Shown here: positions 346-60,299 of the stretch, piece by piece
How the letters are laid out: each line of letters begins with the position of its first letter
How positions within the stretch are numbered: position 1 is the first letter of the stretch
NCBI GenBank assembly: GCA_965649765.1
Contig: OZ287748.1
Location: 16,616,001 to 16,680,000, forward strand
DNA from: Bispira polyomma
Taxonomy: Eukaryota
Length of the DNA stretch: 64,000 bases
Reading direction: 5' to 3'
Position numbers and translations under genes: made by a program
Notes under the pieces: generated by a model
Told to the model about the DNA's origin: nothing
The model's database searches: none
What the model saw: the letters and a program-made list of their open reading frames with translations, nothing else

Positions 346-391
346 ATTGAGTTCATGCAGAATGGTATCATGGGCTATCAAGAATCTGGTG
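346..391 (+). CDS. Short linker exon (IEFMQNGIMGYQESG)
   Basis: atatag acceptor, G|GTACGT donor; homologous to 25534-25645 together with its downstream intron. Confidence 0.72.
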
Positions 392-3300
392 GTACGTTTT
401 TGCTAATCCATTACTTCGCTTAATAACTTATATCTTGTTTATTCCTGTGATTGTATGATTAGCATTGCTTAGCACACAAACTGTTCTAATTGTCTGAAGT
501 GAACAATGTTTAGTTCTTAATGAACTATATATGTAATGGCCTAGTGGTTATAAGAATCTGATTAAATATCACCTCTGGATTCAAAATACACTGCTTCCTT
601 CATGTGGAAAAATGTATTTGTCGTAGCTCCATGGTTTCCAATATCAATAACAGAGGTTTTCTGAATCAGGCCGTCACAAATATAACCAAAGATTTTGAAA
701 GTGACGTAAAAACCAAATCAATTAAATTAAGTATTTATTATATTTTAACCCTGTATGATTTGGTTTGGTCTGAAGGACTCCGTTTTGCAATGGTTTGTTT
801 CCTACTTGTCAGACAGGTACCAGTGTATTAAAATTGGTGATATTTTGTCTGACCTACAAGTGCTGAAATTCGGTGTGCCGCAAGGGTCTGTGCTTGGACC
901 ACTCCTATTTTCATTATATACTACACCCCTTAGCAAAATTATTTCCTCCTATTCTTCTCTGAAGTATCACTTCTATGCAGATGATACACAGATTTACGTG
1001 CACCTTACTCCTAACACATCAATCGGTGCCCTGGAAGTCCTTCAGAAATGCTTAGCAGATGTTCAAAATTGGATGGCGCTAAATAAGCTCAAGCTGAATC
1101 CTGCTAAAACTGAATTCATATTGTTTGGGTCGGGCACTCAACATGCTGAACTGTCAAATTCTTTTCCTGCAAGCATTCTTGGAACACTGTTATCCCCAAC
1201 TGATAAAGTGAGGAACCTGGGAGTTTTGTTTGACAGTGATTTTTCATTTTCCAGTCATATCCAATCAGTGTGTAAGTCATGCTTCATGGGTCTCAGAGAC
1301 CTCAGGAGAATCAGGAGGTACCTTCCAAAATCGGTTGCAATAACTGCAGCAAATGCTCTGGTTGGTAGCAGACTGGACTACAGCAATTCACTGTATCGCA
1401 GCTTGACCAAAAAGGATCTAAAGAAATTGCAATGCATCCAGAACTCATTGGCACGTCTAGTCAGTTGTTCTGCTCAGCTTTCAAATGCTTCACCGATTCT
1501 GAAGTCACTCCACTGGCTCCCTGTTAGGTATCGGTGTGTTTTTAAAACTGCTACAATAGTATAGGTTTCTCGATTCAGGTTTGCCTAAATACTTTGAACC
1601 ACACTTGAGTTACTACAAGTGCAATGTCAACACCAGGAGAGCCGCTCCCAAAAATAGGTTCCTTCATGTTCCAAAATATAAGTCCAAAGTACACGGGTCA
1701 AAGGTTCACTTTGATAAAAGTTTTGCAAATGATGCCCCTACCCTATGGAATAGTTTGCCTCAACACATTAGGACAGCTCCGTCCCTGTATTCCTTCCGGC
1801 GCAGTTTAAAGACCTATCTGTTCAATGATGCATTCCCTCCATAGTCTCTTTCCCATTCTCGGTGGACGCATTGATGACGACTTCCTTCTGTCTATCACCT
1901 ATGTTTTTCGACTCTGGCTGTGGTTTTTATGCGCCTTAGAATCCGTTACAACGAAAATAAGCGCTAAAAAAGTCTGATATATTATTATTATTATGATGAA
2001 AAGGTACCTAGTAGATATACCAGTATCAATTAATGCTTAACAATGAACAATGTCAATCATTTACAAGTTACTAAATAAAAAACAACTGTATAACATCCTT
2101 GATGCTGCAACAGATTAAACTGTTAGTATTGGTAGATTCTGTGTATATGGCCGCTTGTATTTTTATTGTATTTTTCACCATTTTACTGGTATCGTCTAAA
2201 GTACCAAAACAATCAATAACACTTTTAAGAACCTTCACAGTGATGATTGAATGAAAGTAAGGGACCTCTTTTCCCCTCTTCCAACATACAGACACAACAT
2301 GTCTCAATAAATCGAGTTTGTATGTCAATAAAACGACTTTGTAAGTCAATATATTGAGTTTGAAAGTCAGAATTTATAAGTCAATAAAACGAGTTGTAAG
2401 TCAATAAAACGAGTTGTAAGTCAATAAAACGAGTTGTAAGTCAATGAAATGACTTTGTAAGTCAATAAAACGACCTTGTAAATCAATAATGGAGTTTGAA
2501 AGTCAATAAATTGAGTTGTAAGTCAATTAATCTAGTTTGAATGTCCACGAATAGGAAAAAACAATTTCTACATGAGGCCCTAATATGCTTCCATACTTTT
2601 CAGACAGCCCGGCCGGTTATGAATCTCACCCTCAAACAGATTGCACTGGTAATGACTTGGATGATACAACCGCCAGTAATGCAGTAGAATGTGCAAAGAA
2701 GTGTGCTTCCTTTCCCAACTGTGTGGCCTTTCAATTCAATGTTCTCAATCAATGTTACCCAAAGTACCAGTGCGACCAGCTGAAGAATAATGCTGACGGC
2801 AATATATACACTGTGATGTATAACGCGGGTTAGTATAGTTGACATTCCTAAAAGCACAGATGCAAATGTCATTTTGCTGTAACTAACAAGTTTGGTAGCT
2901 GTGGCCTAGTGCTGCGAGTGTTTGACTTTCGATTCTCCCTGCATGTCTGGACATTGTAATCTTGGGCAAAGGTACTTCATACAAATTGGTCGCTTTTCCC
3001 CTGGGTATATAAAAATGGTTTTACATAGCCGCAATGGGTGTTCAGTCTTTGCACTGTGTGTGGCAACATGGCTAGTATGCTCCCTTATGGAACTGAAAGT
3101 TCATTTGAGTGTTGGCTTCACAATCACTGGCCTTTCACCAAAGTGGGATCTTTCCATCATGTGGGAAAGTTTGTCAGGTACTTGCCATAGGCCGATGGTT
3201 TAGAGTGTTTTAGCATTCATTACTTCCACCTTTAAATTTAAATATGACCTAAGCTGTTAAAAGTAACGTAAAACCCAATTAAATTCAAATATAATGTACT

Positions 3301-5430
3301 TTTAAAATGCCAAATGATTTGGAATCGCCCTGATCAAATCACCAAAGAGGGTAGTATCTCGTAAGTTTCTGACAGTGGGTCAGTATTTGGCAAGTTGGCC
3401 AAACTTTAACCCCTTAATCCTCCTACTGTTTGTGGGTTCAAATTGTGTTTCTTAAAGATCGACTAAAAGAGTTGTTCGAATTTGGCAGGTTGTGATTATT
3501 AGGTGGTAGTGGGGAACTACAACTATCCGTACCTGTATCCTTTTCCATATATATTTCGGAGTGTAATCATATATTTAATCATACATCTAGCAAACACAAT
3601 CGATTTGCGCTATTCCCACCCGCATCCGTAGAAAAGGCTTCCAAACCCTTTTTCTATGGATTCAGATTCAGGGATGATGTAAATTGGTTAGAGTATAGCC
3701 ATCACCCGTGAATATATATACGGATACGTACACAGGTGTGGGTGAGCACAGATAGGTCTGGTTTCACATTTACACCAGCAATCCGTCAAATGGCCTGTTT
3801 CATTGTAGCAAATCAATCAACTATCAACGAATTCAATGATAGTAAGAAGTAAATATCACCTCACGAATGCACAAATATGACATTGGATGTGACATGCCAT
3901 AGTAGTAAAAGTAGAAAATAGGGATTGTTTTTTTCTGGCAGGGGTGTGACTACGCTGCGTATCCCACTCGACTACGATTGTTAAACAATAATATAAAGTA
4001 AAGTGGGGTACCCCGTCTATAAACTTAAATAATCTTAAATATAAAAAAAACCACAGTAATCACAATAAAATAAGCTTTCTCCTGCCATTTTCAACGTCAA
4101 CATCCGACAAATATTGAGTATATATCGGATGAAAGAAAAGACAGCGTCAGCTGGCATCGGATCGGATACATTTAAATCGGCCAATGTCAATGTCTGCTGA
4201 AAGGAAGCCAGGGCTAATTCTAGTAGCAAGTCCGTACATTTTCTTTGTGTTTATCTAGTTTGAATGTCACTGCAAACCACAATGCATGGAATTTCAGGCG
4301 CAGAAATTTACAACATTACAGTACTTCGATTTATATACAAAGCCACAAACCAATCACATTGTTAATGACAAACCAATCACATAAATTAATTCTGGGGCTA
4401 GTTCCCGCCCCTTCTATTATGTTAGCATTATCAATTTCGAAAGCATCCAGTTAAGAGCAGAAAATGTAGCTCAACCCACCACCCATTAAGTTAGCTTTAA
4501 ACCCTCTGCTAGTCGTTTATGTGCCGCAGATGTCACATAAAATTGAAACAAATATTTTCACATATCAATCCTCTTTCCCTAGTATATATGATTTTAATTT
4601 GCCTCATACTTATAACAGGGTTTTGTTCAAAACCCTTTTTTTATGACTTTGTTACATACGCCTACAGGTATCACCTGCTTAAGTTTATCGAAGTTAAACT
4701 ATATGTCCTATATAGTTGTTGGGGGCCGATGTCGGCGATATTGCTACTATGCATTTTATCATACAAGATTTTATGGGTACTATCTACCCAAACTTAAAGT
4801 TAGTTAGTTAAAGGTCAAACCACATAGATTTTAAAAGGCGACTGTATCATAAGTTTTCAATTTAGTTGCACTGTTTTGGAGAACATATCATTAGTGTATA
4901 ATACAAGTAAAATGACAATTATGGCATCTATGATTAAATTGTACCGGAAAACAAGAAGACAAACACTCCCAAAACTGGGCCTAATAAGCTCGTTGTGTAA
5001 AGCTTTGTCTTCTTTTGTTATATAATACAATACACACCACTCGTGTAGTTTTCCTATAATTTTTGTAAATATAAAACCTAACGGGAGACAATGTTAGGTT
5101 AGAATAATTGTTGCTGGAGCCCTAGCTTGCTATCAACACTATAAACAATGGCTTAAAATCCAAGAAAGCCCTTAATACATTTTTTTTTTTTTTTGTATTA
5201 ATATTATAGATTTTTTTCACTTTTTCATTTATTTAGATGGTTATAACTGTGGCGACAACAATCCCTGCTCTCCTGCAAACACTGCAGCAAACGGTTACTA
5301 CTACCCTGACGTGGATCCCCGTCAATTTGTCCAGTGTGACTATGCTGGGGAATGTTATGAGCTCAGTTGTCCTCCAGGGCTGGTTTACGATGAGGCAGCT
5401 TTCGTTTGTGTGGACAAAAATCAGAAATGA
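346..5430 (+). CDS. Paralogous PAN + CBM14-like protein with a single PAN domain, 5'-partial; exons 346-391, 2604-2828, 5237-5430
   Basis: IEFMQNGIMGYQESG | DSPAGYESHPQTDCTGNDL...YTVMYNA | DGYNCGDNNPCSPANTAANGYYYPDVDPRQFVQCDYAGECYELSCPPGLVYDEAAFVCVDKNQK*. GT-AG boundaries with the same phases as the minus-strand paralogue; AATAAA at 5512. Confidence 0.87.
760..1991 (+). mobile_element. 5'-truncated L2/CR1-group LINE (RT C-terminal half, one frameshift near 1560)
   Basis: GVPQGSVLGPLLF, YADD, HWLPV, APTLWNSLP motifs; (ATT)n tail; TATGAT on both sides (754-759, 1992-1997). Confidence 0.93.
2306..2540. repeat. Minisatellite, 20-21 bp unit GTCAATAAAACGAGTTGTAA, about 11 copies
   Basis: Directly visible tandem periodicity. 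Confidence 0.9.
2604..2828 (+). CDS. PAN/Apple domain exon
   Basis: 225 nt, phase 1-1, ttttcag acceptor, G|GTTAGT donor, ECAKKC-x5-CVAFQF-x5-CYPK. Confidence 0.88.
5237..5430 (+). CDS. Terminal CBM14-like chitin-binding exon
   Basis: atttag acceptor, CPPGLVYD motif, TGA at 5428-5430; same length (194 nt) as the paralogous exon. Confidence 0.88.
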
Positions 5431-9745: not shown

Positions 9746-9749
9746 ACTG

Positions 9750-11790
9750 TAAAGATCAGCCAGCGGCCAGGCTAGAGGCGGGGCTGCAGAGAGGGAGGAC
9801 ATGGTATCATGCCCCTTTGTCTGCTGGACTGAAGCTGGCCGTTGGGTTGCAATTTTTGGCCACGGGGGACTCAACCAACAGCTTGGCCTTTGACTTCAGG
9901 GTCGGTAGAGCCAGTGTAAAAAAGATGGTGCTTGAAGTCTGTGAGGCCATTTTAGAAGAATACTAGGATGAGTGGCTGACCTGTCCAACCACCGCAGATG
10001 ACTGGAAATAAGTAGACGGCGTCTTCCATACCAGATGGAATGTGCCCTATGCCTTAGGTGCTCTTGATGGCATAAGATGTCCCAGAGGAGGTGGCAGTCA
10101 ATACTTTAACTACAAAGGCTTTCACTCCATTGTAATGCTGGACCTTGTAGATGCCAATTACCGCTTCCTCTGGGTGGATGTTGGGTGCAGTCGGTCGTGG
10201 TCAGACTCCCAGATATTCAACTAATGTGAGCCGAGGGACATGATCGAGGATGGCTCAATTGGATTTACCCCACTGCGACGCATCAGCCCGACCAGACCTG
10301 CAGTGCCATGCCTCATCCTGGACAATGACACGTTTTCACTGAAATCATGGCTGATGAAGCCTTCCTCCCACCGAGGCATGACTCCTGAGCAGAAAATCTC
10401 TAACTACAGGATAAGCTGGGCAGGAGAGTGGTGGGGAATGCCTGGGGATCCTCAACAGATGGGGAGCAACAGATGGAGGGGACTCCTGACCACCATCCAG
10501 CAGGAACCTCATGTGGCGGCAACTGTGACCATGATATGTTGTGTGCTGCACAATATACTCACAATATCGGACCCTGGCAGTGGAAGCATACATGGGGAAC
10601 CTAATGAGCTACAAGGGGATGATCGGGCCCTACCCGGGCCAAACCCCAACAGAGAGGCCAAGAGCCTAGAGAGAGCTGCTGATGCAGTAATTTTACAATG
10701 AAGGAGCAGTGCCTCGACAACAGGGCAGAATCTGAACTTTGACTTCTTCACTTGTACCGAGTGCTAATAATCGGCCTTTTTCAGGGCCACCCTAATTTTC
10801 CAAGAACAATCGATATGCTAGTTTTGCTAAAAAAAGATGAAATAATCCCCTCACTACCATATACCATATACACACAGGACCCACATTTAACCAATCTCTG
10901 TCAGACACATCACAACACATCACCCAAGGTTCATGAAACACAAGGAACTGCATTATTAAAAATAACCTTTGGGTTCAAACACTGTAAGATATTGTTTAAA
11001 CTTTTTGGGGACCAGGGTTCAAACCCTTTAACAATTCTTTAAAACTTGTGGGGAGTTGGGGTTCAAGCTCTTAAATTTTCTTTAAAACATGTGTGTTTGA
11101 GTGAGGTAAGTTTCTTTGTTGGGCCACTAAGTGTTTTGTTCTGATGGTATTTTTGGTATTTTTAAACAACTGCTCCAATAAATGTTCTTGGAATATTTGG
11201 TGGCCCTAATAAGGGCCAATATATTTTAAGTCCTTCCCAGGACATTTGGCAGATCTGCAGCTGTTGGAGGAGGAGTTCAGAGGGCTGGAGAGCTGGTGGA
11301 GGTGCGTCTGTTGGAGGTCTTGGGCGGTGTGTCGGATGTGGCGGTTGCTTTAGCTGTCATGGTCGGTTGGCCGTCATCACCTTCCTCTGTTATTGGCAGA
11401 GGCATATTCAGGGTTGGGTAGTCTCCTGTGGTCCCTCCGAGGTACAGAGACAACCAGGAGGACTGGTTGTGAAAGTCTGAGCTCGCTGATATGATGTTGG
11501 AGAAATGGAAGGGGCTGGCCGCACTCTTCTGTGGTGAAGGTACGTGTATAAGTGTCCCAGTCAGTGTCTGTCCCACCCTATTGTAAGGATTATTTGGGGC
11601 CAACCCCAGCTAATCCTCCTGGCACAATCCTCCTTGGCCCTGGCTAATCTTTAAAATTGAGGTGTCATTGGGGTGCCACCCCGAGTAAACCTAACAATCG
11701 GGGAGGCCACCCCAGTTAATCTTTACAGTCGAGGTGAACAATTGGGGTGCCAGGATGATTAATCAGGAAGCCACCCCAATTAGTCAGGGT
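9750..11790 (+). mobile_element. Degenerate PIF/Harbinger transposon (DDE transposase pseudogene about 9750-10700; GGGGTGCCACCCC-like repeats near 11590-11790)
   Basis: LQFLATGDS, GALDG, YFNYKGFHSIV, VDANYRFLWVDVG, SDSQIF, WLMKP, CCVLHN; right boundary uncertain. Confidence 0.85.
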
Positions 11791-11792
11791 CA

Positions 11793-14590
11793 ATTATTAT
11801 TATTATGAATTTTTAACATGCTTTATTGATGCTAGGCATATTCTAAAGTGTAACACCAGAATTATTGATCCAATCATTAGGTCCATGGACATAGCAAAGT
11901 CGTAAGGAAGGAAGTGGGAGTGTGTACGACTGAAGCTAAGGCGGGTAAGCAAAGTTAAAAAGATAGGTTTTAAGCTTTTTCCTAAAACCGATAAATGTGT
12001 CAACTGATCTGAGGTTGACTGGGAGACTGTTCCATACCAATGAAGCTGCAGTGGAGACCGATCTGGATCTCACGTTCCTGATAAGTCTGACTGAAAAGAC
12101 AGAGAGTCTGTTGCCTCTCTTGCGGTTAGTGAAGGAGAGAAGGGAAGCAAGTTATGGGGCTGTTGAGTGACTACAGCCTAAAAAGTGGTAACATGAATCA
12201 ATATACGAGAATGAATGGGCAGCCAGTGTAATTTTTTGAGGTAACGAGTGAGGTCTGTGTAAGAACCCAGAAGAAAAATAACCCTGTATAGGTGATTTTG
12301 GATGGACTTGAGCTTTTTAATGTGTGACTTGTTTGCTCCATAAAAAAGAGAGTTGCAGAAGTCGAGGCGGCTACTCAGAAGGGCAGTAGCCACAGTTATC
12401 GCTGTGTACATAAACAGGGGGTTTCGGGTTCTTTAGATGTCGCGTATATGGTAATAGCAGGAGTGACAGATATTGGCAATATGAGTGTCGAACGAAAAAG
12501 CTGAATCAAAAGTGATACCCAGGTTTATGGCATTTTCGGAAGGTAGTATGTCTTTTCCCAGCAGGGAGATGGGAAACAAAGATTTTAAGAGTTCATTGTT
12601 TTTCTTGTTTCCTATGAGAATGAATTCTGTTTTATCTGGGTTAAGTTTTAATTTGGAGTAGTTCATCCACACCTGGACAGCGGACAGACAGTCTGCATGT
12701 AGTTCAATATTTATATTTGGGTTTTGTGGATTGAGAGAGAGATAGATTTGAGTGTCATCTGCATACATGTAGTGTTTTATATTATGATAATTGATGACGG
12801 TGTTGAGAGGATGTGTATAAAGGGTGAAAAGTAGAGGGCCAAAGACGGATCCCTGGGGTACTCAATATGGTAGCTTTATGGAAGATGATAGGTGATCATC
12901 TGATTTAATTCTTTGTGCCCTAAGAGTAAGATAGGTTCTGATCCATTTGAGGACACTGCCATTTATACCAACCAGTGCTTGAGAGTGTCGCAGAGCAGGC
13001 CATGATCAATAGTGTCGAATTCAGCTGAGAGATCCAGAAGGGTGAGGGCCACTGTGTCGTTGCAGTCCAGTACAAGATTAATATCATTGCTGATAGAAAA
13101 AAGGGCACTTTCTGTAGAGTGGAATTTTCTGTAAGCAAGGTTTTCGAGGTTTTGTCTATTTAGGTGGTCAGAAATTTGTTGTGCTACAGCTTTCTTGATA
13201 ACTTTTGAGATGAAGCTGAGGTTTGACACCGGTCTGTAGTTTTTGAGCATGGTTTTATCAAGCCTTTTTTTATCAAAGGAGTTGCATTTGCAGTCTTGAA
13301 ACAGGTGGGAATGTTACATATAAGGACATTGTGGTATGTTAAAGCACTCTGCTAGAGTGATCTATTTATAGAATTGTGGAAACCCCTAAGCTTCTGGAAG
13401 CTGGTTCTATTTTGTTTCTGTTGTTATTGAAGTTGTGTTAATATGTATATATATCTCATTCTGGAACGTTCTAGCAATTGTTTACATATTCTAGCAACCT
13501 TCTCTAGCAGTGGTATATATAAGGGTTGACAGCCTGGTCACAGACCAGAGTTTATTGAGTTGGTGTGCTATACGAACTGTTATACTGTGAAACATTTTAT
13601 TTTTTTTCCTGTGGATATAAACTGATTACTATATATGTTTTTGTGGTGAACTCATTGGAGTGAACTAGATGAAAGTTGTGGATCTACCAGAGATTGGATT
13701 TGCTGCATATCGGATATTTTTGCATCCTGGACTGGATAGCTCAGTTGTGCAGACTCTCTGGATACATACATTTTGTGATCGTGGACACTGGACTGATATC
13801 AGGCTACAGGCAATGTGTGTTTGTGGACACCGAACGGATAACAGGATACAGGCATTGTATGGACACCGAGCGAATCTCAAGACAGATTGCTGGATACAGT
13901 GGACAAACTTGTTTAATTGTTATTTACGTGGAAAGGACTGTGGTCAGGCCAGATTGGTTTTATTATTGTATAATTGTATTATTGTACAAACTATTAAGAT
14001 TATCTCAGTTGACTGTAATTCTTTAATTCTGTAATTGTGTTATTGTTGTTTTATTTGTTAAATAAATTTGTTAAGTGAAACTTTTTGTCTTTTCCTGTTA
14101 CAACCTAAAAGCAAGCGGTAATTGCTACCGCGCTTGCTCCCGTGACCGTAACAGGGAAAAACACCATTCCGAAGAGAAAAATGTAATATGTTGGTTATGG
14201 GTGTGACTAGAATGTCAAGGCATTGATTTAGAATAACTGCTGGGATGGGATCCAATTCACAAGATTTAATAGTAGAGAATTTCATGAGTTTTAGAACATC
14301 CTGATCTGACAGTGTTCTAAATAGAAACAGGTCAGAAACCTTATATCCTGGGGTTGGAGGATTAAAGTGATATATCGTTAGAAAACCTTCACAAATGTAA
14401 AAATGTAGGGCAGTGATTTATGGGGAGAACTTTCTTCGATGTTCGATGTAAAATTTTGTTCATGGAAGCCCATAACCTTTTGGGATTGTCCTGGTTTTCA
14501 CTGATGATATAGTCGTAATGTTTCTTTCTGGCACCAGATATTAGCCTGTTAAAAGTATTTGTGGCGATGCGGTAACGGAGACCTTCCACC
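11793..14590 (-). mobile_element. Decayed L2/CR1-group LINE interrupted by a solo LTR; same family as 58252-59988
   Basis: KSCELDPIP, NYRPVSNLSFISK, LLDLSAEFDTIDH, YADD, HWLPI; (AAT)n tail. Confidence 0.92.
13312..14153. mobile_element. Solo LTR, 842 bp
   Basis: TGTTAC...GTAACA termini; 5-bp target duplication GGGAA (13307-13311, 14154-14158); empty site in the sister LINE near 59840. Confidence 0.92.
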
Positions 14591-19173: not shown

Positions 19174-19367
19174 TTATTTTTGAATGTTGCGCACACAAAG
19201 GTGAAGTGCCTTATCAAACACCAGCCCTGGAGGACAACTGAGATCAAAGCATCCACCAGCATCGTCACACTCGATATATTTACGGGGATCCCTGGCAGGG
19301 TAGTAGTAACCGTGTACTGCAATGTTTGATGGAGAGCAGGGATTGTTGCCTTGGCAGTTATAGCCAT
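19174..19367 (-). CDS. Terminal CBM14/peritrophin-A-like exon (DGYNCQGNNPCSPSNIAVHGYYYPARDPRKYIECDDAGGCFDLSCPPGLVFDKALHLCVRNIQK*)
   Basis: TAG acceptor, phase 1, CPxGLxF/Y motif; AATAAA on the minus strand near 19113-19118. Confidence 0.88.
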
Positions 19368-22300
19368 CTAGATAAATGAAAAAGTTGAAAAATATCTACA
19401 TAATAATCATACAAAAATGTATTTAAGGGGCTTCAGGCAGTAAAGGCCATTGTTTCTAGTGTTGATAGAAAGCATGGGCTCCAGAAACAATGATTCAAAC
19501 ATTATTCGCAATAGTCGCAATATAACTATAGCTGTTGAAAGCGATGCAAAACCAAAATAAATTCAAATTCAATTGAAAAGTAGTAAAAATCAAGGTTTAT
19601 ATTCCATTATGTTCTTTAATGTTAATTTGTATATCTAAACCTGATACATTTTGCTCGATTTCTCTTTAAAACAACAAGTCAGATAGACAATGAAACCCTT
19701 GAAAATCCTGCAAATACAACATTTTTAAAGGCGCAGTGTTACATAAAACAATTTATACAACATTCTGTATACCATCATAGTAGAGTGGGCGATGCAGCAC
19801 AGTTTGTAATAGAAACCTCTTTTTCACAAAACATAAGCTATGACATGTCACATCCAATATCATATTTGTAAAAATATGGCAGAAAACTTGCCAAATACTG
19901 ACCCCCTGTCAGAAACTCCCCTCTTTGGTGATTTGATCAAGGGCATTCTTAATCATTTGGCAATTTATAAGTAAATTGTATTCCCGCCATGTTGCCACAT
20001 ACAGTGCAAAGACGGACCACCCATTGGTGGGTAGGTAAAACCAGTCATATACCTGGGTTGAAAGGGACATCTTTGTCTGAATTACCTTGCCCAAAAGTAC
20101 AATCTCTAGGTTTGTAGTGACGAAGGAAAGTAAAATATTCTCACCACAAGGCTACAGAGACAACACTTGTAAATAACAGCAAGATGACATTGCATTTGTG
20201 CTTTTAGGAATGTCAACTACTCACCCGAGTTATACATCACTGTGTACATACTGCTATATACAGTAGCCTCCGGCAGGTCACACTGGTGGTACATAGGGGA
20301 ACATATATTTTCAACAGTAAACACAAAGGCAACACAGTTGGTAAAGGAAGCACACTTCTTTGCACATTCTGCTGCGTTATAAGCGTATATTTTCTCTAAG
20401 TTAGGTACATCGCAAAATGTTTGTAGGTGAAATTCATAACCAGCAGGTCTGTCTGAAAAGGTTATAAAAATGTGATTTATTTCGTACAATAAACGGTACA
20501 AGTACAATGGTTAAATATAAAAATACAAACATGAATGAACAGAAATATACACATACTCTGACAATTATGACAGTTTAATCTATTGAAGCATAACTGGGGA
20601 TGTTACACAATTCATTTTTAGTAAATTGTAAATTATTGGCCTTGTTCCTTTTTAAGTAATAATCGATGATTGTATATCTAATACCACGGCTACATACAAG
20701 TACCCAGAACAGCTCTTTCTGAGCTTGGAGTTAGATTTCCTCTCTGGGTAATCAATCTGTTAGTCTGTGTGTATTAAAATAACATTAACACTGCATCCCT
20801 GTGATCCATGTGGTAATGAAATATAAACATTTGTAAATGTGCCAAGAGACCGTATTTACAAAAGACCTTTACTAAGTCTCAATCTTAACTTCTATGTCTA
20901 AAATATTTAGGACTGCCTTCTGTTTGTCTTTGTGTTAAGTCCCAAGTTAACAGTAACCAAAGATATTTTCTCACTGTCACTGGGACTAAGGCCAAAATCT
21001 TAACCTTTTCCACCAAAATAATGGCCTAAAATCTTAAGACTAAGTTAAGACTGTGACCTTTTGGTGAATATGACCCAGCTTTTCTCACTTATACATCTAG
21101 TCTTAACTTTTTTCTAGCACAGTTACAAAGTTTTATGTATGTTTTATTTGTGTGACTCCATTGAAGTACAGAGCAACCATTTTGATCCAAACAACTAAGG
21201 AGTGTGATAATTCATTCGGATAATAAAAGGTTAATAAAACCGAAAAGCCAGTTAGTATAAAACAGGTATGAGTGAAAGGAGTATTAACCTTTCTTACCAC
21301 TAAACCACAGAGACCACACTTGTAAGTAACAGCAAAATGACATTACATCTAGGTTTTTAGGAATGTCAACTACTCACCCAAGTTATACAGCATAATGTAC
21401 ACATTGCCATCAGCATTATTCTCCAGCTGGTCGCATTGGTACTTTAGGTAACAATTATTGCGAATATCGAACTGAAAAGCTACACAGCTGGCAGAGGAAG
21501 CACACTTCTTTGCACACTCTCCTGCATTACTAACGGCTGTTATCTCTAAATTATATCCCCTGCAATCTGTTTGTGGGTGAAATTGATATCCAGTCGGTCT
21601 GTCTATAAAAGTTGTAAAAGTATTATTGATATATTTCATACAATAAACGATACACGTACAATGGTTAAAAAAAATACAAACATGAATGAACAGAAATATA
21701 CACATAATTTACCAATACTGACAGTTTAATCTATTGCAATATAACTGATGATGTTACACAGTTCATTTTTGGTAAATTGTAAATTACTGGCCTTGTTCAT
21801 TGTTAAGAAATAATTGATGATTGTATATCTATTACCACGGCTATGTACAAGTGTCTAAAACAGCTCTTTTTAAGTTTGGAGTTAGATTTCCTTATGTCCT
21901 CTCTGGGTAATCAAGGTGTCAGTTAGTTTGTATTAAAATAGCATTAACATTGCATCCCTGTGATCCATGTGGTAATGAAATATAAACATTTGTAAATGTG
22001 CCAAGAGACCGTATTTACAAAAGACCTTTACTAAGTCTCAATCTTAACTTCTATGTCTAAAATATTTAGGACTGCCTTCTGTTTGTCTTTGTGTTAAGTC
22101 CCAAGTTAACAGTAACCAAAGATATTTTCTCACTGTCACTGGGACTAAGGCCAAAATCTTAACCTTTTCCACCAAAATAATGGCCTAAAATCTTAAGACT
22201 AAGTTAAGACTGTGACCTTTTGGTGAATATGACCCAGCTTTTCTCACTTATACATCTAGTCTTAACTTTTTTCTAGCACAGTTACAAAGTTTTATGTGTG

Positions 22301-25300
22301 TTTTATTTGTGTGCCTCCATTGAAGTACAGTACATTTGGATAATATAAGGTTAATAAAATAGAAAAGGTAGTTAGTATAAAACAGGTATGAGTGAGAGGA
22401 GAACTAACCTCTCTTTCCACTAAACCATAAAGACCACACTTGTAAGTAACAGTAGAATGACATTACATCTTTTCTTTTTGGAATATCAACTACTCACCCA
22501 AGTTATACAGCCTAATGTACACATTGAAATTATAATTTTCCTTCATTTGGTCGCACTGGTAATTTAGCCAACAATGCCAGTAATAACTGAACTGAAAAGC
22601 CACACAGTTGGTATATGAAGCACACACTTTTGCACATGCTGCTGGATTTGAAGTTTCAACCATTATGCTATTTCCAATGCAACTTCTATATGGGTGAAGT
22701 TCATATCCAGCCGGTCTGTCTATAAAAGTTGTAAAAGTTTTATTGATATATTTCATACAAAAAACGATACAAATACAATGATTAAAAAAAAATACACACA
22801 CGAATCAACAGAAATATACACATACTCTAAAAATCATGACAGTTTCATCTATTGCAGTATAACTGATGATGTTACACAGTTCATTTTAAGTAAATTGTAT
22901 ACTATTGGCCCTGTTCATTGTTAAGAAATAATTGATGATTGTATATTTATTGCCACTGCTTCATACAAGTGCCCAAAACAACTTTCTGAACTTAGAGTTA
23001 GATTTCCTTATGTCCTTTCTAGGTATTCAATCTGTTAGTCACTGTGTATTAAAATAACATTATCACTCGGCATCCCTGTGATCCATGTGGCAATGAAATA
23101 TAAACATCTGTAAATGTGTCCAATGGACAGTATTTACAAAAGGTTTTTACTTAGTGTTAAGCTAAATTTCTATGTCTGAAATATTTAAGACTGCCTTTTG
23201 TTAGCTTATGTGTTAAGGGGCTATGAACGTAAACACATAAACTGATCGCCCACAACCTTGTTACATGTGTTTGAGCTTCTCACAAAGTGCACAACTTTTA
23301 TTTTGTTGCCTTAAACTTGATTTATGGATATCATATTTACATTTTCGAGTAGAAATAATAAAGAATGACATATATTTTAATTATATGCTAATTTATATAT
23401 TTTATGTGTCATTTAAATAGATATATTGGGACATAAAATGCTTATGGCAGTGTGTAATATTTTAAATAAAATGGTTAATATTTTTTAAAGACATTCACAA
23501 ACCTGACACATAACACACAAGAAGGAAACAATATTGAAATTTTATACATCACTAACAAAAGGAATATTTCAGCGTCATTTTGAATGATTTCGTTTTTTAA
23601 TTACAACACACCAACACAGCTAATTTAAGAAAACCATTTAATTTACTTTTTTGCAAACATAAACGTTTCTTGTATTTTTCGTTTTCATAAAATAAGAAAA
23701 TATATTCGTAAAAAAGTAAATCACTCAAAATAATATACATGTTTTTTCAAGTTGTTTAGCGTATATAATATTTTCATATGTGTTGGATCAATACTCATAA
23801 TGTGTCACAATAGAAAGGTTTTTTCCTGAGAATTGTTTACAAATATGACATTCTACATAGATTTTTAAATTGTGTGACGTCACAATATAATAATCGTTAT
23901 ATGGGTTTTTTTATTGTTTTATAGCAAAGTATTAAACTTTAAATTTGTCTAGATATATAATAATAGTAAAAACCTTACTAAAGTATACTTTTAAAGTCAT
24001 CATAGTTGTTATACAGAGTAGAAATGGGCATTCCTAAAGCATCATACTTTATCGCTGGCATGGTTTTGTGTTTACGTTATGCCGTGGTCACACTGGCCTT
24101 ACGTTTGGATTACGCACAAAAAAGGGCTAACGTAAGCTAAAACGTTGTGAAAGTAAGTAAATGTAAGTAAAACATGGTACCTTAAGTTTAGTTATCTCCT
24201 GTTTTTAAAAAACCTCTTAATTTTCAGAATGCTCGGAAGTAAAGCGAACTATGCAAACAAATAATATTATTAAACAAGGAAAAAAAGAATGAAACGGGTT
24301 TACAAATGTTAAAATCAAGGAGAACGAGACAAAACGGGTTTCTAAAATGTGGCTAACGAGGCTAACATATTATTAAAACATGGCTAAAGAGTTAAACATA
24401 ATTGAAATGACTATTAAAATGTATGAAATGCATGTACAAACGTGTACATGTGCCTACTGAACGGACTATACATAGAGTTTTGCTACGTTTCCCAATTTTT
24501 CCATGGTTTTTCATTCCGTTTTCTCCCATTTACGAAAAAAACGTAACACAAACGTACTCAGTGTGACCACGGCATTAATAACCGCTTAAGTGCAAATTAC
24601 CCTAACCTCTTTTATCCAAACAACTGAGAATTTATTCAGATAATAGAATGTTAATAAAAAAAGAAAAGGCAGTTAGTATAAAACAGGTATGAGTGAGAGG
24701 AGTAATTATTATGCCACAGAGACCACACTAGTAAGTAACAGCTGAATGACATTACATCTGGGCTTTTACGAATGTCAACTACTCACCTGGGTTATTCATC
24801 ACAGTGTACACATTGCCATCAATATTATTCTCCAGCTGGTCACATTTGTACTTAGGGATACAATAATTGTTAACATTGAACTGAAAGGCCACACATATGA
24901 TAAGTATAGCACACCTCTTTGCACATGCTGCCGCATTATTAACAAGTGTCTTCTCTAAATCATGTCCCTTGCAATCTGTTTGTGGGTAAAATTCATAAGC
25001 AGCAGGTCTGTCTGAAAAGGTTATAAAAAGTTTATTGATTTATTTTATACAATAAACGGTACAAGTACAATGGTTAAAAAAATACAAACATGAATGAACA
25101 GAAATATACACATAATCTAACAATACTGACAGTTTAATCAGTTGCAGCATAACTGATGATGTTACACTTTTCATTTTTAGTAAATTGTAAATTATTGACC
25201 TTATTCCTTGTAAAGAAATAATTGATGATTGCATATCTACTAAGTACCTTTTCACCATACAGGTTTTAAATTTGTTAAGTATCTAATTTGATTGATTTGT

Positions 25301-26522
25301 ATTTTACATCACTTTCAAAATCTTTGGTTATATTTGTGACGGCCAAATTCAGAATCCTCTCTTATTCGTATTGGAAATCATGGAGCTACGGCAAATACCG
25401 TTTCCCACATGAAGGAAGCAGTGGTTCACAGATTATTAGAGCAGTTTGTCTGCTAAGCAAGGATAATCATACACCTACAGGAATAAACAATACAAACGCT
25501 TTAAAGAGAAGTACCGGATTTGCAAAAAATTACCACCAGATTCCTGATTGTTGTTACCATTCTGCATGTCATTCTTCAAATCATTGCGCATGTTGTCGTT
25601 CTGCAGGACGTCATCGCGCATTTTAACATTTTGCATGACGTTATTCTATAAAGGATAGTATTTGTAAATGTAAATGTATGGATTCTCAAACGTTAACTAT
25701 AACTCCTACTGTAAATGTATTGATTCTCAAACGTTAACTATAACTCCTACTGTAAATGTATTGATTCTCAAACGTTAACTATAACTCCTACTGTAAATGT
25801 ATTGATTCTCAAACGTTAACTATAACTCCTACTGTAAATGTATTGATTCTCAACCGTTAACTATAACTCCTACTGTAAATGTATTGATTTTCAAACGTCA
25901 ACTAGGGGGCGGCGGTGGCCTAGTGGTTAGCAAGCATTGCGATTCACAATCACTGGTCTCTGACTGGTTACAGTCAACATCAATGATTTCAGATTTGTAC
26001 AAGTGAGAAATGGCTGATTCAGTTGAACATACATTTAAGAAAGATTTACACACTAAATTACAGCAAACTGAGAAAAACTTTTTCCTAAAAGATTAATATT
26101 TTTTAATGATTGTGCTATAAAGTCATTTGAGTTTTGTACATGTAAAAGATGGCTCAATAAGTTGAAGATAGTTTCAAGAAAAATGTATACACTAAATTAC
26201 AGGAAATCAAGAAAAAACATTACCAACAATTTATACATGTACATAGTTGCTGTAATAATCTAAATACTTAATTGGTATTATCAGAGTTGAACATACCACA
26301 TGACGTGTAATGTATAAGAAAATGTCTCTGATATGAGCAAACCCATTTGATACATCATTATGGATGAAAAAGATTTAAATGTGACTAGTTAATCATTACT
26401 TGAAGAAAAATAAAAGAATTCAGTAAGTATGCGAACTTACTGGACCTAAAACCAGTAAATACACGTATTTACTAAAAATTTAGGGATTTAGGGAATACTT
26501 ATATATATATATATTAGGGATA

Positions 26523-26568
<46 letters not shown>

Positions 26569-26857
26569 AAAAGATATAAGTCCATAGAGATGTCAAGATC
26601 TTCCATGCTGTATCTTTGAGAAGAAGACATGTATTTAAAATATGACTACATATATAAGCATATATTTAAAATATGACTACATATATATATATATATATAT
26701 ATCAAGTATATTTTTATATCTTTTAGATTCACAATGTGAACAAGCTATTTTCACCACTAAAAGAGGTAATCAGTGTTATTACCTGGTGGAACAAACTCTG
26801 GCCAAGAAGACAGTTTGCCAAAACAACAAGTAATGCCACACACAAGTGATGCTTCAT
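19174..26857 (-). CDS. Secreted protein: signal peptide + N/D/M/Q-rich linker + 4 PAN/Apple domains + CBM14-like chitin-binding domain, 426 aa; exons 26857-26783, 25645-25534, 25011-24787, 22719-22498, 21602-21378, 20452-20225, 19367-19174
   Basis: Seven GT-AG exons in compatible phase (0,1,1,1,1,1) give a 1281-nt open frame. N-terminus MKHHLCVALLVVLANCLLGQS is hydrophobic. PAN pattern C-x-G...CAKxC-x5-CVAFxF-x5-C. C-terminal PC...YYYP..DPRKYIEC...CPPGLVFD....C. Confidence 0.88.
20225..20452 (-). CDS. PAN/Apple exon 4 of 4 (DRPAGYEFHLQTFCDVPNL...YTVMYNS)
   Basis: 228 nt, phase 1-1, CAG acceptor, GTGAGT donor. Confidence 0.88.
21378..21602 (-). CDS. PAN/Apple exon 3 of 4 (DRPTGYQFHPQTDCRGYNL...YIMLYNL)
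   Basis: 225 nt, phase 1-1, TAG acceptor, GTGAGT donor. Confidence 0.88.
22498..22719 (-). CDS. PAN/Apple exon 2 of 4 (DRPAGYELHPYRSCIGNS...YIRLYNL)
   Basis: 222 nt, phase 1-1, TAG acceptor, GTGAGT donor. Confidence 0.88.
23217..24585. mobile_element. Non-autonomous TIR element with TTAA target (Kolobok-like), with a nested MITE inside its right TIR
   Basis: TTAA|GGGGCTATGAACGTAAACAC ... GTGTTTACGTTA[insert]ATAACCGC|TTAA. Confidence 0.78.
24080..24574. mobile_element. PIF/Harbinger-type MITE
   Basis: Perfect 16-bp TIR TGCCGTGGTCACACTG, 3-bp TTA target duplication. Confidence 0.88.
24787..25011 (-). CDS. PAN/Apple exon 1 of 4 (DRPAAYEFYPQTDCKGHDL...YTVMNNP)
   Basis: 225 nt, phase 1-1, open frame translated by hand (not in the ORF track), 6 Cys. 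Confidence 0.88.
25534..25645 (-). CDS. Low-complexity linker exon (NNVMQNVKMRDDVLQNDNMRNDLKNDMQNGNNNQESG)
   Basis: tttatag acceptor, G|GTAAT donor; 3' end homologous to exon 346-391 of the paralogue. Confidence 0.8.
25663..25903. repeat. Minisatellite, 41-bp unit, about 6 near-identical copies
   Basis: TGTAAATGTATTGATTCTCAAACGTTAACTATAACTCCTAC repeated with period 41. Confidence 0.95.
26500..26702. repeat. (TA)n microsatellite cluster
   Basis: Three TA runs. Confidence 0.9.
26783..26857 (-). CDS. Signal-peptide exon of PAN4-CBM14 gene (MKHHLCVALLVVLANCLLGQSLFHQ)
   Basis: ATG, basic n-region then hydrophobic h-region; CAG|GTAAT phase-0 donor matches the next exon. Confidence 0.8.
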
Positions 26858-34317: not shown

Positions 34318-37300
34318 AAATCGGTTTTTGATAACAAAAACGAAGCGTCCCTAAAGTTAAAATAATAATGAAATTGTTTAGTGTACAAGGTTTGATATTG
34401 TTTAAAAGTTGACATATAAGCAGAAGCACTTTTGGTCAAATATAAGCTTGAAATCGCTCTATATAGCACCATTTCCAAGATAACATACATTTTCGAAAAA
34501 GACGCAGAAATTCAAGATGGCCACCAAAATCGAACTTTTTTTAAAAGTATAAATATAGGCAAAAATAACCCTGAGGGTCGAAAATGAGCTTGAAATTGCT
34601 CTATCTAGCACCGTTTTCGAGATAACGGACATTTTCAAAAAAAGCGCAGAAATTCAAGATGGCCGCCAAAATTAAAACTTTTTTTGAAAGTTTACATATA
34701 AGCAAAATCAACCCTGTGGGTCAAAAATGAGCTTGAAATCGCTCTTTTTCCGTTTCTGAGATAAAGGACATTTTCGAAAAAGACACAGAAATTCAAGATG
34801 GCCGCCCAAATTGAACATTCTTTTAAAGTTTACATATAAGCAAAATCAACCCTGTGGGTCGAAAATAAGCTCGAAATCGCTCCATCTAGCACCATTTCCG
34901 AGTTAACGGACATTTTCGAAAAAGACGCAGAAATTCAAGATGGCCGCCAAAATTGAAAATTTTTTGAAAGTTGACATTTAAGCAAAATCAACCCTGTAGA
35001 TCGAAAATGAGCTCAAAACGCTCTATCTAGCACCGTTTCCGAGATAACGAACATTTTCGAAAAAGACGCAGAAATTCAAGATGATTGCCAAAATTGAAAA
35101 TTTTTCGAAAGTTTACTTATAAGCAAAATCAACCCTGGGTTCGAAAACGAGCTCGAAATCGCTCTATCTAGCACCGTTTCCGAGATATTTTACATTTTCG
35201 AAAAAAACACAGAAATTCAAGATGGCCGCCCAAATTGAACATTCTTTTAAAGTTTACATATAAGCAAAATCAACCCTGTGGGTCGAAAATAAGCTCGACA
35301 TCGCTCTATCTAGCACCGTTTCCGAGATAATAGACATTTTCGAAAAAGACGCAGAAATTCAAGATGGCCGCCAAAATTGAAAATTTTTTGAAAGTTGACA
35401 TATAAGCAAAATCAACCCTGTAGATCGAAAATGAGCTCGAAATTGCTCTATCTAGCACCGTTTCCGAGATATTGGACATTTTCGAAAAAGACCCAGAAAT
35501 TCAAGATGGCCGCCAAAATTGGACATTTTTTCAAAAGTTTACATATAAGCAAAATCAACCCTGTGAGTCGAAAATGAGCTTGAAATCGCTCTATCTAGCA
35601 CCGTTTCCGAGATAACGGACATTTTCGAAAAAGACGCAGAAATTCAAGATGATTGCCAAAATTGAAAATTTTTTGAAAGTTTACTTATAAGCAAAATCAA
35701 CCCTGGGTTCGAAAACGAGCTCGAAATCGCTCTATCTAGCACCGTTTCTGAGATATTTGACATTTTCGAAAAAGACGCAGAAATTCAAGATGGCCACCAA
35801 AATTAAAATTTTGTTTGAAACTTTGCATATAAGCAAAATCAACCCTGTGGGTCGAAAATGAGCTCGACATCGCTCTATCTAGCACCGTTTCCGAGATAAT
35901 AGACATTTTCGAAAAAGACGCAGAAATTCAAGATGGCCGCCAAAATTGAAAATTTTTTTGAAAGTTTGCATATAAGCAAAATCAACCCTGTGGGTCGAAA
36001 ATGAGCTCGACATCGCTCTATCTAGCACCGTTTCCGAGATATTGGACATTTTCGAAAAAGACGCAGAAATTCAAGATGGCCACCAAAATTAAAATTTTGT
36101 TTGAAACTTTGCTTATAAGCAAAATCAACCCTGTGGGTCGAAAATGAGCTCGAAATCGCTCTATCTAGCACCTTTTCCGAGATAACAGACATTTTCGAAA
36201 AAGACGCAGAAATTCAAGATGGTCGCCAAAATTGAAAATTTTTTTGAAAGTTTGCATATAAGCAAAATCAACCCTGTAGATCGAAAATGAGCTCGAAATC
36301 GCTCTATCTAGCACCGTTTCCGAGATAACGAACATTTTCGAAAAAGACGCAGAAATTCAAGATGATTGCCAAAATTGAAAATTTTTTGAAAGTTTACTTA
36401 TAAGCAAAATCAACCCTGGGTTCGAAAACGAGCTCGAAATCGCTCTATCTAGCACCGTTTCCGAGATATTTTACATTTTCGAAAAAGACACAGAAATTCA
36501 AGATGGCCGCCAAAATTGAACATTCTTTTAAAGTTTACATATGAGCAAAATCAACCCTGTGGGCCGAAAATGAGCTTGAAATAGCTCTATCTAGCACCGT
36601 TTCCGAGATAACAGACATTTTCGAAAAAGACGCAGAAATTCAAGATGGCCGCCAAAATTTTAATTTTTTTTTGAAAGTTTACATATGAGCAAAATCAACC
36701 CGATGGGTCGAAAATGAGCTCGAAATCGCTCTATCTAGCACCGTTTCCGAGATATTGGACATTTTCGAAAAAGACGCAGAAATTGAAGACGGCCGCCAAA
36801 ATTAAAATTTTTTTGGAAAGTTTGCATATAAGCAAAATCAACTCTGTGGGTCGAAAATGAGCTCGACATCGTTCTATCTAGCACCGTTTCCGAGATATTT
36901 GACATTTTCGAAAAAGACGCAGAAATTCAAGATGGCCACCAAAATTAAAATTTTTTTGGAAAGTTTGCATATAAGCAAAATCAACCCTGTGGGTTGAAAA
37001 CAAGCTCGAAATCGCTCTATCTAGCACTGTTTCCGAGATAACGGACATTTTCAAAAAAGACGCAGAAATTCAAGATGGCCGCCAAAATTGAAAAATTTTT
37101 GAAAGTTTACATATGAGCAAAATCAACCATGTGGGTCGAAAATGAGCTCGAAATCGCTCTATCTAGCAACCTTTCCGAGATATTGGACATTTTCGAAAAA
37201 GACGCAGAAATACAAGATGGCCGCCAAAATTGAAATTTCGTGAAAGTTTCCATATAAGCAAAATCAACCCTGTGGGTCGAAAATGAGCTCGAAATCGCTC

Positions 37301-38251
37301 TATCTAGCACCGTTTCCGAGATAATGGACGCTTTAAAAAAAACCTTAATTTTTAAAATGTTTGAAATTGAAATCGTTTTATCTCAGTAACGATCGCATAT
37401 TTTTGGATGGGGTAAAAAATAAATAAAAATTCAGGCTATTCTTTAAAAGTTAAGCGCTGGATGTACTGATCTAAAATTAAAAATAAAAAAAATCCTCACA
37501 CGCTCAAAAAAGCACCCATCAACACATTTTTTTCCCCATTCTGTATGATTGATCGACCCTGTCAATCCGTCAATTATCACCAGATTGATCTAAAAATTCA
37601 CGGACATCTATGCTTTGGTATTTGCAACGTGCATGCTAAATCTCATTGAACTATGACAAGTACTTCAAAAGAAAAGTTGATAAAAGTGCAAGATAGAGCA
37701 ACATAGAGCAAACTACTCATTTGAAGTACTCAGTACTCATTGAGTACTGGACTTAGAACTGAGATTTTTACATCATACATAAAATCAAAAAGTAGATGAA
37801 TAACTTATACCAAGAAAAAGCTGAAATCCCAATAGTTTCTGAGATAGCAAAAAAGTACTGATTTTTTGCATTTCAATAAAAATCAATCGGTTGGCAATCG
37901 GTCAATTATCATCCGATTAATCTCATCAGCGTCTCCCGTCCTGAAAATTGCCTTACCAAGGTACATACCAAATTTCATTGAGCTATGATGAATACTTTCT
38001 GAGAAAACCTAGTGACAAGCACTTTTACACCCCCAGGGTCACCTGACATTTAAGTAGGCCAAAGTTCAAAGCCAAGAATATGAAAAAAATTTCCCACTCC
38101 TGGTTAAGAGAACTGCCAAAAATAATTTTGATGCAGATAATATTGAAGGAGATATTCAAGGAAGACCATGCGGCGGCGGCGGCGGCGGCACAGGCAGCGA
38201 GGAAACCAGGGGTGAAACCAAATAAGCGCCCTTTTCAAGGGACGCTTAATT
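34318..38251 (-). mobile_element. Non-autonomous Helentron-type element (HINE/DINE-1-like) with an internal satellite array
   Basis: Subterminal inverted repeat AAGCGTCCCT (about 34343) / AGGGACGCTT (about 38238); palindrome TAAGCGCCC..GGGACGCTTA at one end; stem-loop TCGGTTTTTG-ATAA-CAAAAACGA at the other; (GGC)n at 38171-38189; central tandem repeats. Confidence 0.78.
34414..37330. repeat. Tandem satellite, about 142-bp unit, about 20 copies
   Basis: GCAGAAATTCAAGATGGCCGCCAAAATT...GCTCTATCTAGCACCGTTTCCGAGATA recurs every 139-143 bp. Confidence 0.97.
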
Positions 38252-57795: not shown

Positions 57796-58251
57796 CTGGA
57801 AAGACATAATCACTATTATTTTCAAAAAAACAATGCTGATATGTGGGGTATTAAATAGTGTTAAAAATTATAAGAATAAGTATAAAATATCAGGATACTT
57901 AACACATAGCTCAATGAATTTTACCAGGCTCATCCGCGTCATCATTCAAGTATCTAATACATGTCACTATTTTAACATTACAAACTCCGTCTGAATGCAA
58001 GATATTCCCAAGTTCCAACTTTAGTGAAATATTGGTATTTAGTGATCTCGAGAATCTCTTAAAGGTTGGGGGGGATAATTAAAGAGGGGGCCTTTATTAC
58101 ACAGAAAACGGTATTTATGGACCTTAAGTACGCCACACACAATACAATTTCCCATCAGCAACAATTTCTCTAAGACAAAAAGCTGCAAGACTTTTCATTT
58201 GTCTTCTCTTTAGTTTATATTTTATCGATGGATAAGTGATCTAAAGAAGAA

Positions 58252-59988: not shown

Positions 59989-60299
59989 AAAAAAAGTTGA
60001 TTGTTTGACAAATTTTGTGGTAATATTTTGAGAGATTATTCAGTTTAATTATTTTCGGGGCCAGTAGTTTTCACTTTTCCTATAGCAGACAATGACTCAG
60101 CTAGTTGTGACTTTACATCTGACAGTGATGGCTCGACTCACATTGCCCATTCTGATGACTTCCATGAGGAGGACTCTGATCACACTCCAGGTGACTCTCA
60201 ACTATCAAATAATGAGATCCATTCACCCAAGTGATATTTCTTTTAAAGTTCCTCAGTCTGTAGAAGATTATGTGGCAGATGAACAGCCTGATGCCTCTA

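Follow-up and report, generated by a model that had tools for sequence, protein, structure and literature searches.

Diversified recognition proteins of invertebrates are known on immunoglobulin (Ig), fibrinogen, F-lectin, and C-lectin scaffolds. Here, we describe a gene of Bispira polyomma, called gene A, that is predicted to combine 4 tandem PAN domains, each encoded by a single exon (E1 to E4), with a terminal CBM14 domain. It lies in a 64-kb stretch of contig OZ287748.1 (assembly GCA_965649765.1, positions 16,616,001 to 16,680,000 of the forward strand; hereafter, the window); coordinates are positions within this window unless a prefix is given, and all gene models are predictions from the DNA. 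It is highly probable that the 4 PAN exons form a young, intact array under site-specific positive selection, amid relaxed constraint and intron conversion. With a probability of about 0.5, gene A encodes a secreted, multivalent, lectin-like protein that acts in the lumen of the gut or in mucus, where it recognises changing surfaces of foreign origin, and that is probably not tethered to chitin. If this is true, a PAN-based recognition protein in an animal would represent an additional scaffold.

A preliminary description of this DNA had likened gene A to the VCBPs of amphioxus and Ciona (PMC2632668; PMC6414549). The analogy holds for the layout, a secreted protein with tandem variable domains and a terminal chitin-binding-type domain encoded in a small cluster, but not for the domains, which in gene A are 4 one-exon PAN repeats instead of 2 Ig V-type domains. 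Moreover, the diversity shown for gene A lies between repeats and not between alleles, and its CBM14 domain lacks an equivalent of chitotriosidase Trp465 (see below). VCBPs are characterised by allelic hyperpolymorphism, expression in the gut, and binding of microbes. Oyster bindin (PMC5712786) resembles gene A in its tandem lectin-type repeats of varying number, in selection near the sugar pocket, and in intron exchange, but its F-lectin repeats, unlike the one-exon PAN repeats, are each split by an intron, and the protein is sperm-specific and diversified by splicing as well as between alleles. The PAN/apple fold and its use in tandem are shared with apple 5 of Toxoplasma MIC4 and with Sarcocystis SML-2 (PDB 2LL3 and 2YIL; Z 10.2 for MIC4, range 10.2–10.7), yet these are parasite adhesins of only 13–19% identity, and the aligned lysine of MIC4, a general PAN consensus residue, is lost in E2 and E4 of gene A. 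Conotoxin and snake phospholipase A2 (PLA2) genes (bioRxiv 10.1101/107672) have, like gene A, a fixed cysteine scaffold and a coding exon with 2–3 times the divergence of flanking introns; those are multigene venom families, whereas the paralogues within gene A are repeats of one gene with no hint of toxicity. Aplysia EHEP (PDB 8IN3; PMC10619976) is, like gene A, secreted and of CBM14 fold in part, but it has 3 CBM14 domains and no PAN domain and binds polyphenols.

Exons that outpace their introns are a known signature, seen before in abalone fertilisation genes as well as in conotoxins and snake PLA2 (bioRxiv 10.1101/107672), while the PAN plus CBM14 architecture was not found described in the literature searched, with supplements such as shell or mucus proteome tables lying outside that search. 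Word-indexed searches with E3 and the CBM14 exon returned no orthologue among longer proteins, which is weak evidence, and none of the 382 PAN proteins from a profile search was close to gene A. CBM_14 was matched at E 1e-5 in 0 of 105 PAN homologues of up to 600 amino acids (aa), and 45 longer ones gave no credible CBM match to a profile made from 2 CBM sequences only. From one stored homologue in a protein atlas, only generic PAN clusters were obtained.

An intact array of four PAN exons

Gene A is an intact minus-strand model of 426 aa that runs from a signal peptide, judged by a hydrophobicity scan, through an Asn-rich linker and the 4 PAN domains to the CBM14 domain, with an open frame and canonical splice sites. 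Self-comparison revealed an inverted paralogue with a single PAN exon, gene B, on the plus strand about 14 kb away (179 aa). Their features are as follows, where omega is the ratio of nonsynonymous to synonymous substitution rates (dN/dS):

26783..26857, minus strand: first coding exon of gene A, 25 codons that include the ATG and encode the predicted signal peptide, donor in phase 0
25534..25645, minus strand: exon 2 of gene A, 112 nt, phase 0 to 1, Asn/Asp/Gln/Met-rich linker, homologous to gene B exon 346-391
24787..25011, minus strand: PAN exon E1, 225 nt, phase 1-1, branch omega 0.92
22498..22719, minus strand: PAN exon E2, 222 nt, phase 1-1, the fastest copy, branch omega 3.19
21378..21602, minus strand: PAN exon E3, 225 nt, phase 1-1, branch omega 1.12
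20225..20452, minus strand: PAN exon E4, 228 nt, phase 1-1, one-codon insertion, branch omega 1.59
19174..19367, minus strand: terminal exon of gene A, CBM14 (peritrophin-A) domain and stop codon
19114..19119, minus strand: AATAAA hexamer resembling a poly(A) signal, conserved with its context in the 3' untranslated region (UTR) of gene B
346..391, plus strand: exon 2 of gene B, homologous to the linker exon of gene A
2604..2828, plus strand: single PAN exon of gene B, branch omega about 0.55
5237..5430, plus strand: terminal CBM14 exon of gene B, Asp at the Trp465 position

The preliminary placement of 4 tandem PAN exons at 20225..25011 was confirmed, as was their identity (by Pfam and AlphaFold). 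All 4 are bounded by AG acceptors and G/GTGAGT donors, hold no stop or frameshift, and keep the six cysteines and the CAKxC and CVAFxF motifs, just as had been noted before. E1, E3, and the PAN exon of gene B score above the Pfam cut-off for PAN_1; E2 and E4 match PAN_4 at an E of about 1e-5, yet below the cut-off. AlphaFold predicts a PAN fold for E3 (confidence score pLDDT 94.8) and E2 (93.0), and the models show the five-stranded sheet, single helix, and conserved cysteines of PAN/apple domains. Their best fold matches are the apple domains of plasminogen, HGF, SML-2, and kallikrein (for plasminogen PAN, Z 12.8 and root mean square deviation 1.9 over 74 aligned residues). Pairwise, the 4 copies are identical at 31–44 of 73–74 aa and at 64–77% of nucleotides; for E2 and E3, an earlier hand count of about 39/75 became 38/73. 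The module length of 1.1–1.2 kb given before fits 2 of the spacings, with introns of 895 and 925 nt, but not the intron between E1 and E2, which is longer (2067 nt) because of repeat insertions.

A pseudogene reading of gene A was rejected given the open frame and intact splice sites; of 3000 neutral simulations, none retained all 24 cysteines without a stop. The linker of exon 2 is built of degenerate 15-nt repeats (read by eye). Since an AG resembling an acceptor directly precedes the ATG of gene A, a further 5' UTR exon likely lies upstream. Neither the protein of gene A, despite 47 Asn in 406 residues, nor that of gene B holds an N-glycosylation sequon (3.5 expected, p about 0.02), a post hoc observation that was not used.

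The first exon of gene B lies just left of the window and is homologous to the signal-peptide exon of gene A, and both genes have their exon layout, upstream noncoding blocks, and 3' AATAAA context in common. The inverted pair derives from a one-PAN ancestor, and the PAN exon of gene A was duplicated 3 times in tandem together with its flanking intron. Close PAN exons in the 1.035-Gb genome number at least 5, i.e., E1–E4 and that of gene B, while at least 38 more distant ones (25–41% identity) are found on other contigs or far off; the 50 kb left of the window hold no additional PAN or CBM exon. Contigs of 3 DNA runs from one study match the PAN exons without differences among the matches listed and may stem from the source animal.

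The genome carries at least 43 six-cysteine PAN exon matches. Two older PAN arrays of four exons each, the introns of which cannot be aligned, lie at C4:93126668-93130126 and C5:43381054-43385554. In a mucin-like gene at C9:41485001-41525000, many EGF exons and Thr/Lys/Ala/Pro repeats are accompanied by CBM14 exons and by a single PAN exon of like orientation, which may represent a second, unrelated architecture with both PAN and CBM14.

Site-specific positive selection

Selection was assessed with our own implementation of codon models (MG94/F1x4 and GY94/F3x4, with empirical-Bayes posteriors), fitted to 5 exons (E1–E4 and the PAN exon of gene B) unless a four-exon fit is stated. Under the two frequency models, twice the log-likelihood difference (2dlnL) was 14.6 and 15.3 for M1a/M2a, 14.5 and 15.6 for M7/M8, and 14.4 and 15.1 for M8a/M8, with p values of 1e-4 to 7e-4 for M1a/M2a and M8a/M8, which supports the diversifying selection that the preliminary description had proposed. 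These fits place 10–16% of sites at omega 4.4–6.9 and 16–20% in a conserved class; the fit to 4 exons without gene B gives a 2dlnL of 17.0 with 40% of sites at omega 4. By counting, dN/dS ranges from 0.87 to 1.82 among pairs of E1–E4, and the 4 exons have an omega of 1.38; set against the branch of gene B (0.53), the array reaches 1.41.

The signal persists when E1, E2, or E4 is left out (p 0.004–0.02), under two alternative topologies (2dlnL about 14.3–14.9), and in a model permitting double and triple substitutions (2dlnL 11.6, p 0.003). Null simulations never reached 14.6, be it among 27 plain ones (maximum 7.0) or among 27 conversion mosaics (maximum 7.3), and an intron-calibrated test with a free synonymous rate gave p 4e-5. 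These robustness fits and mosaic nulls give no support to the idea that multi-nucleotide changes, topology, or conversion mimicked the signal of selection. As a control, 11 of 14 other PAN paralogue pairs of the genome are unsaturated and show omega values of 0.19–0.78, the 3 pairs with dS > 5 being excluded; in one of these controls, L020:646-873 versus L016:2544-2771 (C4), omega is 0.78 and exon identity (79%) is lower than flank identity (84–86%).

Exon and intron divergence

The introns of the array contain the following repeats and tracts (no strand is assigned):

24080..24574: insertion in the intron between E1 and E2, an element that has terminal inverted repeats and is flanked by TTA
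23213-24079: additional high-copy repeat in the same intron, adjoining this element
21951..22297: 347-bp tract in the intron between E2 and E3, identical to 20792-21138 and containing a high-copy repeat element
20792..21138: partner of the identical tract, in the intron between E3 and E4

Close alignment of the introns had been noted early on and is real: the introns E2–E3 and E3–E4 align end to end with 87.5% identity over 913 columns, and the 270 nt upstream of each PAN exon are 81–87% identical among copies. By contrast, 23–36% of bases differ between exons and 11–16% between their flanking introns (51/222 to 78/219 versus 31/293 to 48/291 differences; Fisher p 2e-4 to 4e-7 in 6/6 pairs), although the trimmed flank alignment comprises the alignable intron parts and hence leans toward conservation. 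The exon excess is absent in 4/4 comparisons with gene B. Part of the intron likeness seen in the preliminary description is recent conversion, so that the contrast overstates the acceleration of the exons: the 347-bp identical tract sits within flanks that are about 13% divergent (chance about 1e-21), from which we infer a recent gene conversion. Independent transposon insertion was rejected as its origin because identity extends into the flanks, and it is also contradicted by an older, interrupted copy of the same element in the intron E1–E2.

When intron flanks are fitted on the exon topology, the terminal branches of the array are short (0.03–0.10, compared to 0.24 for gene B), so recent duplication accounts for much of the intron likeness. 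Intron homogenisation besides recent duplication is indicated by the identical tract and by a joint model in which synonymous sites of the exons evolve 1.74–1.94 times as fast as the introns (p 0.04 and 0.01). The exon/intron contrast is therefore real but inflated, and the locus illustrates that such contrasts in tandem arrays need care, since intron conversion supplies part of the one seen here. The preliminary description had named a dN/dS well below 1, with synonymous divergence matching the introns, as the pattern that would speak against selection; what we observed instead was an omega of 1.38 and a synonymous divergence of 1.7–1.9 times the intron rate.

These data bear directly on the possibility that the exons of redundant repeats merely drift near neutrally within a disulfide scaffold under relaxed constraint and seem accelerated as conversion resets the introns. 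Such drift would agree with the majority of sites fitting omega = 1, with the 347-bp identical tract, with a synonymous rate of 1.7–1.9 times the intron rate (p 0.01–0.04), with the disappearance of the exon/intron contrast against gene B, and with CBM and signal exons that are likewise fast between A and B. However, the selection test is independent of introns and keeps its significance when multi-nucleotide changes are allowed and when conversion-mosaic nulls serve as the reference, the branch of E2 has an omega of 3.2, and a homogenised array elsewhere in the genome has exons that are homogenised just as well. This array (C5:60655817-60671551) comprises at least 13 near-identical 1.2-kb modules of a mucin-like gene, each a single exon with a CBM14 and an EGF domain, and its exons are as homogeneous as its introns (0–4 differences of 300 nt versus 1–20 of 888). 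We therefore consider drift with intron homogenisation to be quite an unlikely account of the array.

Intronic exchange, symmetric exons, and a one-repeat paralogue are also reminiscent of oyster bindin, a gamete-recognition protein whose 1–5 tandem lectin repeats have been selected at the sugar pocket and are subject to recombination within introns and to the skipping of exons (PMC5712786), and gene A could analogously have been diversified by sexual conflict. This is very unlikely in our view, as the domains differ (PAN and not F-lectin) and the CBM14 tail comes from mucin-like genes.

Selected sites and the likely ligand face

The best-supported selected sites are alignment columns 22 and 47, with posteriors > 0.95 under both frequency models, and columns 14, 49, and 51, with posteriors of 0.88–0.97. 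The preliminary description had placed the variation in hypervariable loops, and the five-residue segments that it quoted are correct, but 3 of these 5 sites (22, 49, and 51) fall into predicted strands: in the model of E3, column 22 ends the strand 17–22, column 47 lies in a hairpin, and columns 49 and 51 belong to the strand 49–53. Columns 49 and 51 alternate along this strand with Cys50, which presumably faces the helix according to the usual PAN disulfide pattern; this alternation makes it likely that columns 49, 51, and 53 point to the open side of the sheet. Columns 22, 47, 49, and 51 are located within or next to strands that probably make up the ligand face.

The motif of gene B that spans the strand 41–45 to Lys53 aligns residue for residue with apple 5 of Toxoplasma MIC4 as far as Lys60 of the latter (E 0.16), and columns 47, 49, and 51 fall into the hairpin and strand that align beside this lysine. 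Going by construct numbering, Lys60 of 2LL3 is presumably K469 of MIC4, and the Asn and Tyr neighbouring this lysine presumably line the sugar site. E1, E3, and gene B have Lys at column 53, E2 has Asn, and E4 has Met or Tyr. Of 30 further PAN exons in the genome (34 matches minus 4 truncated ones), 28 have Lys at this column and 26 an aromatic residue or His at column 51. The array has thus lost the consensus Lys of column 53 in E2 and E4 and the aromatic or His of column 51 in E1 and E4. In E2, 14/74 residues are aromatic, including an aromatic-rich hairpin, and the PAN fold is still predicted. Sugar binding of MIC4 is abolished by the K469M substitution (PMC6608980), and the pattern in the array fits a re-tuned ligand site.

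The CBM14 tail

The CBM14 domains of genes A and B pass Pfam PF01607 (29.3 and 29.9 bits, cut-off 22.1) with its six-cysteine profile. At the position aligned to chitotriosidase Trp465, whose substitution had the strongest effect on chitin binding of that enzyme (PMC5459812), gene A has Arg and gene B has Asp, whereas the two nearest CBM14 relatives in the genome have Tyr and Trp. The domains are released from the constraint acting on related domains of the genome, with an omega of 1.26 on the branches of A and B versus 0.15 in relatives (2dlnL 18). The best sequence match in the PDB is Aplysia EHEP (PDB 8IN3, E 2.7e-4), and the CBM14 domains of EHEP are reported to bind polyphenols and not chitin (PMC10619976). 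In the genome, the nearest relatives of the tail belong to mucin-like genes, where EGF, trefoil-like, and Thr-rich exons surround them (exon types read by eye); a gene with CBM14 plus EGF and trefoil-like exons at C1:77540001-77562605 harbours the closest relatives.

The preliminary description had proposed a chitin-anchored recognition or adhesion protein, for example a mucosal or cuticular immune sensor analogous to the VCBPs. In such a model, the CBM14 domain would bind chitin of the host or of fungi and tether the 4 variable PAN domains to a cuticle or to a chitinous matrix in the gut. The layout of signal peptide, variable domains, and terminal CBM14 above the Pfam cut-off would suit such a sensor, as would the fact that gene A retains residues of the pocket of chitotriosidase (Pro, Gly, and Leu), and the loss of one Trp is not decisive given that chitin-binding residues are not conserved among chitin-binding CBM14 domains (PMC10619976). 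Nevertheless, a chitin anchor of gene A appears doubtful because the Trp465 position is not aromatic, omega is 1.26, and the best match is EHEP, a non-binder of chitin. This leaves the anchored sensor as an unlikely reading, if one to be kept in mind.

The match to EHEP also evokes a feeding or digestive secretion, i.e., a protein of saliva or gut fluid with prey or dietary molecules as ligands, in the manner of leech PAN-fold salivary proteins or EHEP itself. The 2–3 times higher divergence of exons over flanks is the pattern of conotoxin mature exons (2.9 times; bioRxiv 10.1101/107672), and the PAN fold is shared with leech anti-platelet protein (Z 8.2). However, this fold match is weaker than those to plasminogen, HGF, or SML-2, and only two genes and no expanded cluster were found, so that we judge a feeding secretion to be improbable. 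Lophotrochozoan biomineral proteomes contain CBM14 as well as PAN domains, which are listed separately (PMC13425148), and gene A could encode a structural protein of the shell, cuticle, or radula matrix, but a structural role would leave both the site-specific positive selection and the loss of the chitin-contact Trp unexplained and is extremely unlikely.

Proposed function of gene A

How a secreted, lectin-like recogniser of changing foreign surfaces could have evolved at this locus may be outlined as follows. After the inverted pair had formed from its one-PAN ancestor, 3 duplications of the PAN exon and flanking intron supplied the repeats of gene A, of which between 10–15% (five-exon fit) and 40% (four-exon fit) of sites, on statistical evidence, evolve at omega 4–7 with cysteines and core kept. 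Conversion would keep parts of the introns alike and be counter-selected within exons, and the changed residues would adjust a glycan-type site similar to the one in MIC4 apple 5 and thereby let each repeat bind a different ligand. The CBM14 domain would come from a mucin-associated family and have lost or changed its chitin specificity.

A number of points weigh against this proposal. No pair among E1–E4 has a dN significantly above dS (best p 0.058), and relaxed constraint contributes heavily to the divergence of the array because about 70% of sites in the five-exon fit lie near omega = 1 and the array omega is significantly higher neither than 1 (gene-wide, p 0.15) nor than that of gene B (p 0.08). 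With 5 sequences and empirical-Bayes posteriors, the identities of selected sites are soft, and their spatial clustering depends on strand alternation. Since the Lys of column 53 is a general PAN consensus, likeness to MIC4 does not show galactose binding, and the mucosal placement derives from relatives of one domain only.

A more far-reaching, unlikely extension of the recogniser proposal would see gene A as a PAN-based, VCBP-like diversified recognition system that was built independently. Its CBM14 domain would be a fifth variable binding module and not an anchor, and 4 skippable in-frame exons with different ligand faces could be reshuffled between haplotypes via homogenised introns to yield repertoires specific to individuals or isoforms. 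In any case, the locus constitutes a compact natural experiment in which a slow one-domain gene B with consensus ligand-face residues stands beside 4 diverged repeats, and these five 8-kDa domains could reveal how binding sites are re-tuned once their exon has been duplicated.

Other features of the window

A degenerate reverse-transcriptase fragment resembling a long interspersed nuclear element (LINE) occupies 749-1990 in intron 2 of gene B, and similar elements are found at about 11800-14400 and 58250-60040. Open reading frame fragments like those of a Harbinger-type transposase lie between genes A and B (9658-11600, by eye), and exons of TUSC3/MAGT1 (OST3/6) are found on the minus strand at 53766-57867; the TUSC3 exon that was compared with other animals is closest to Pinctada, Littorina, and other molluscs. 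Tandem arrays are present at 34391-37341 (period about 142 nt) and 52999-53825 (period about 34 nt). A very high-copy short element at 25904-25964, which shows extreme contig depth and recurs several times in the 50 kb to the left of the window, adjoins a 41-nt minisatellite at 25669-25904.

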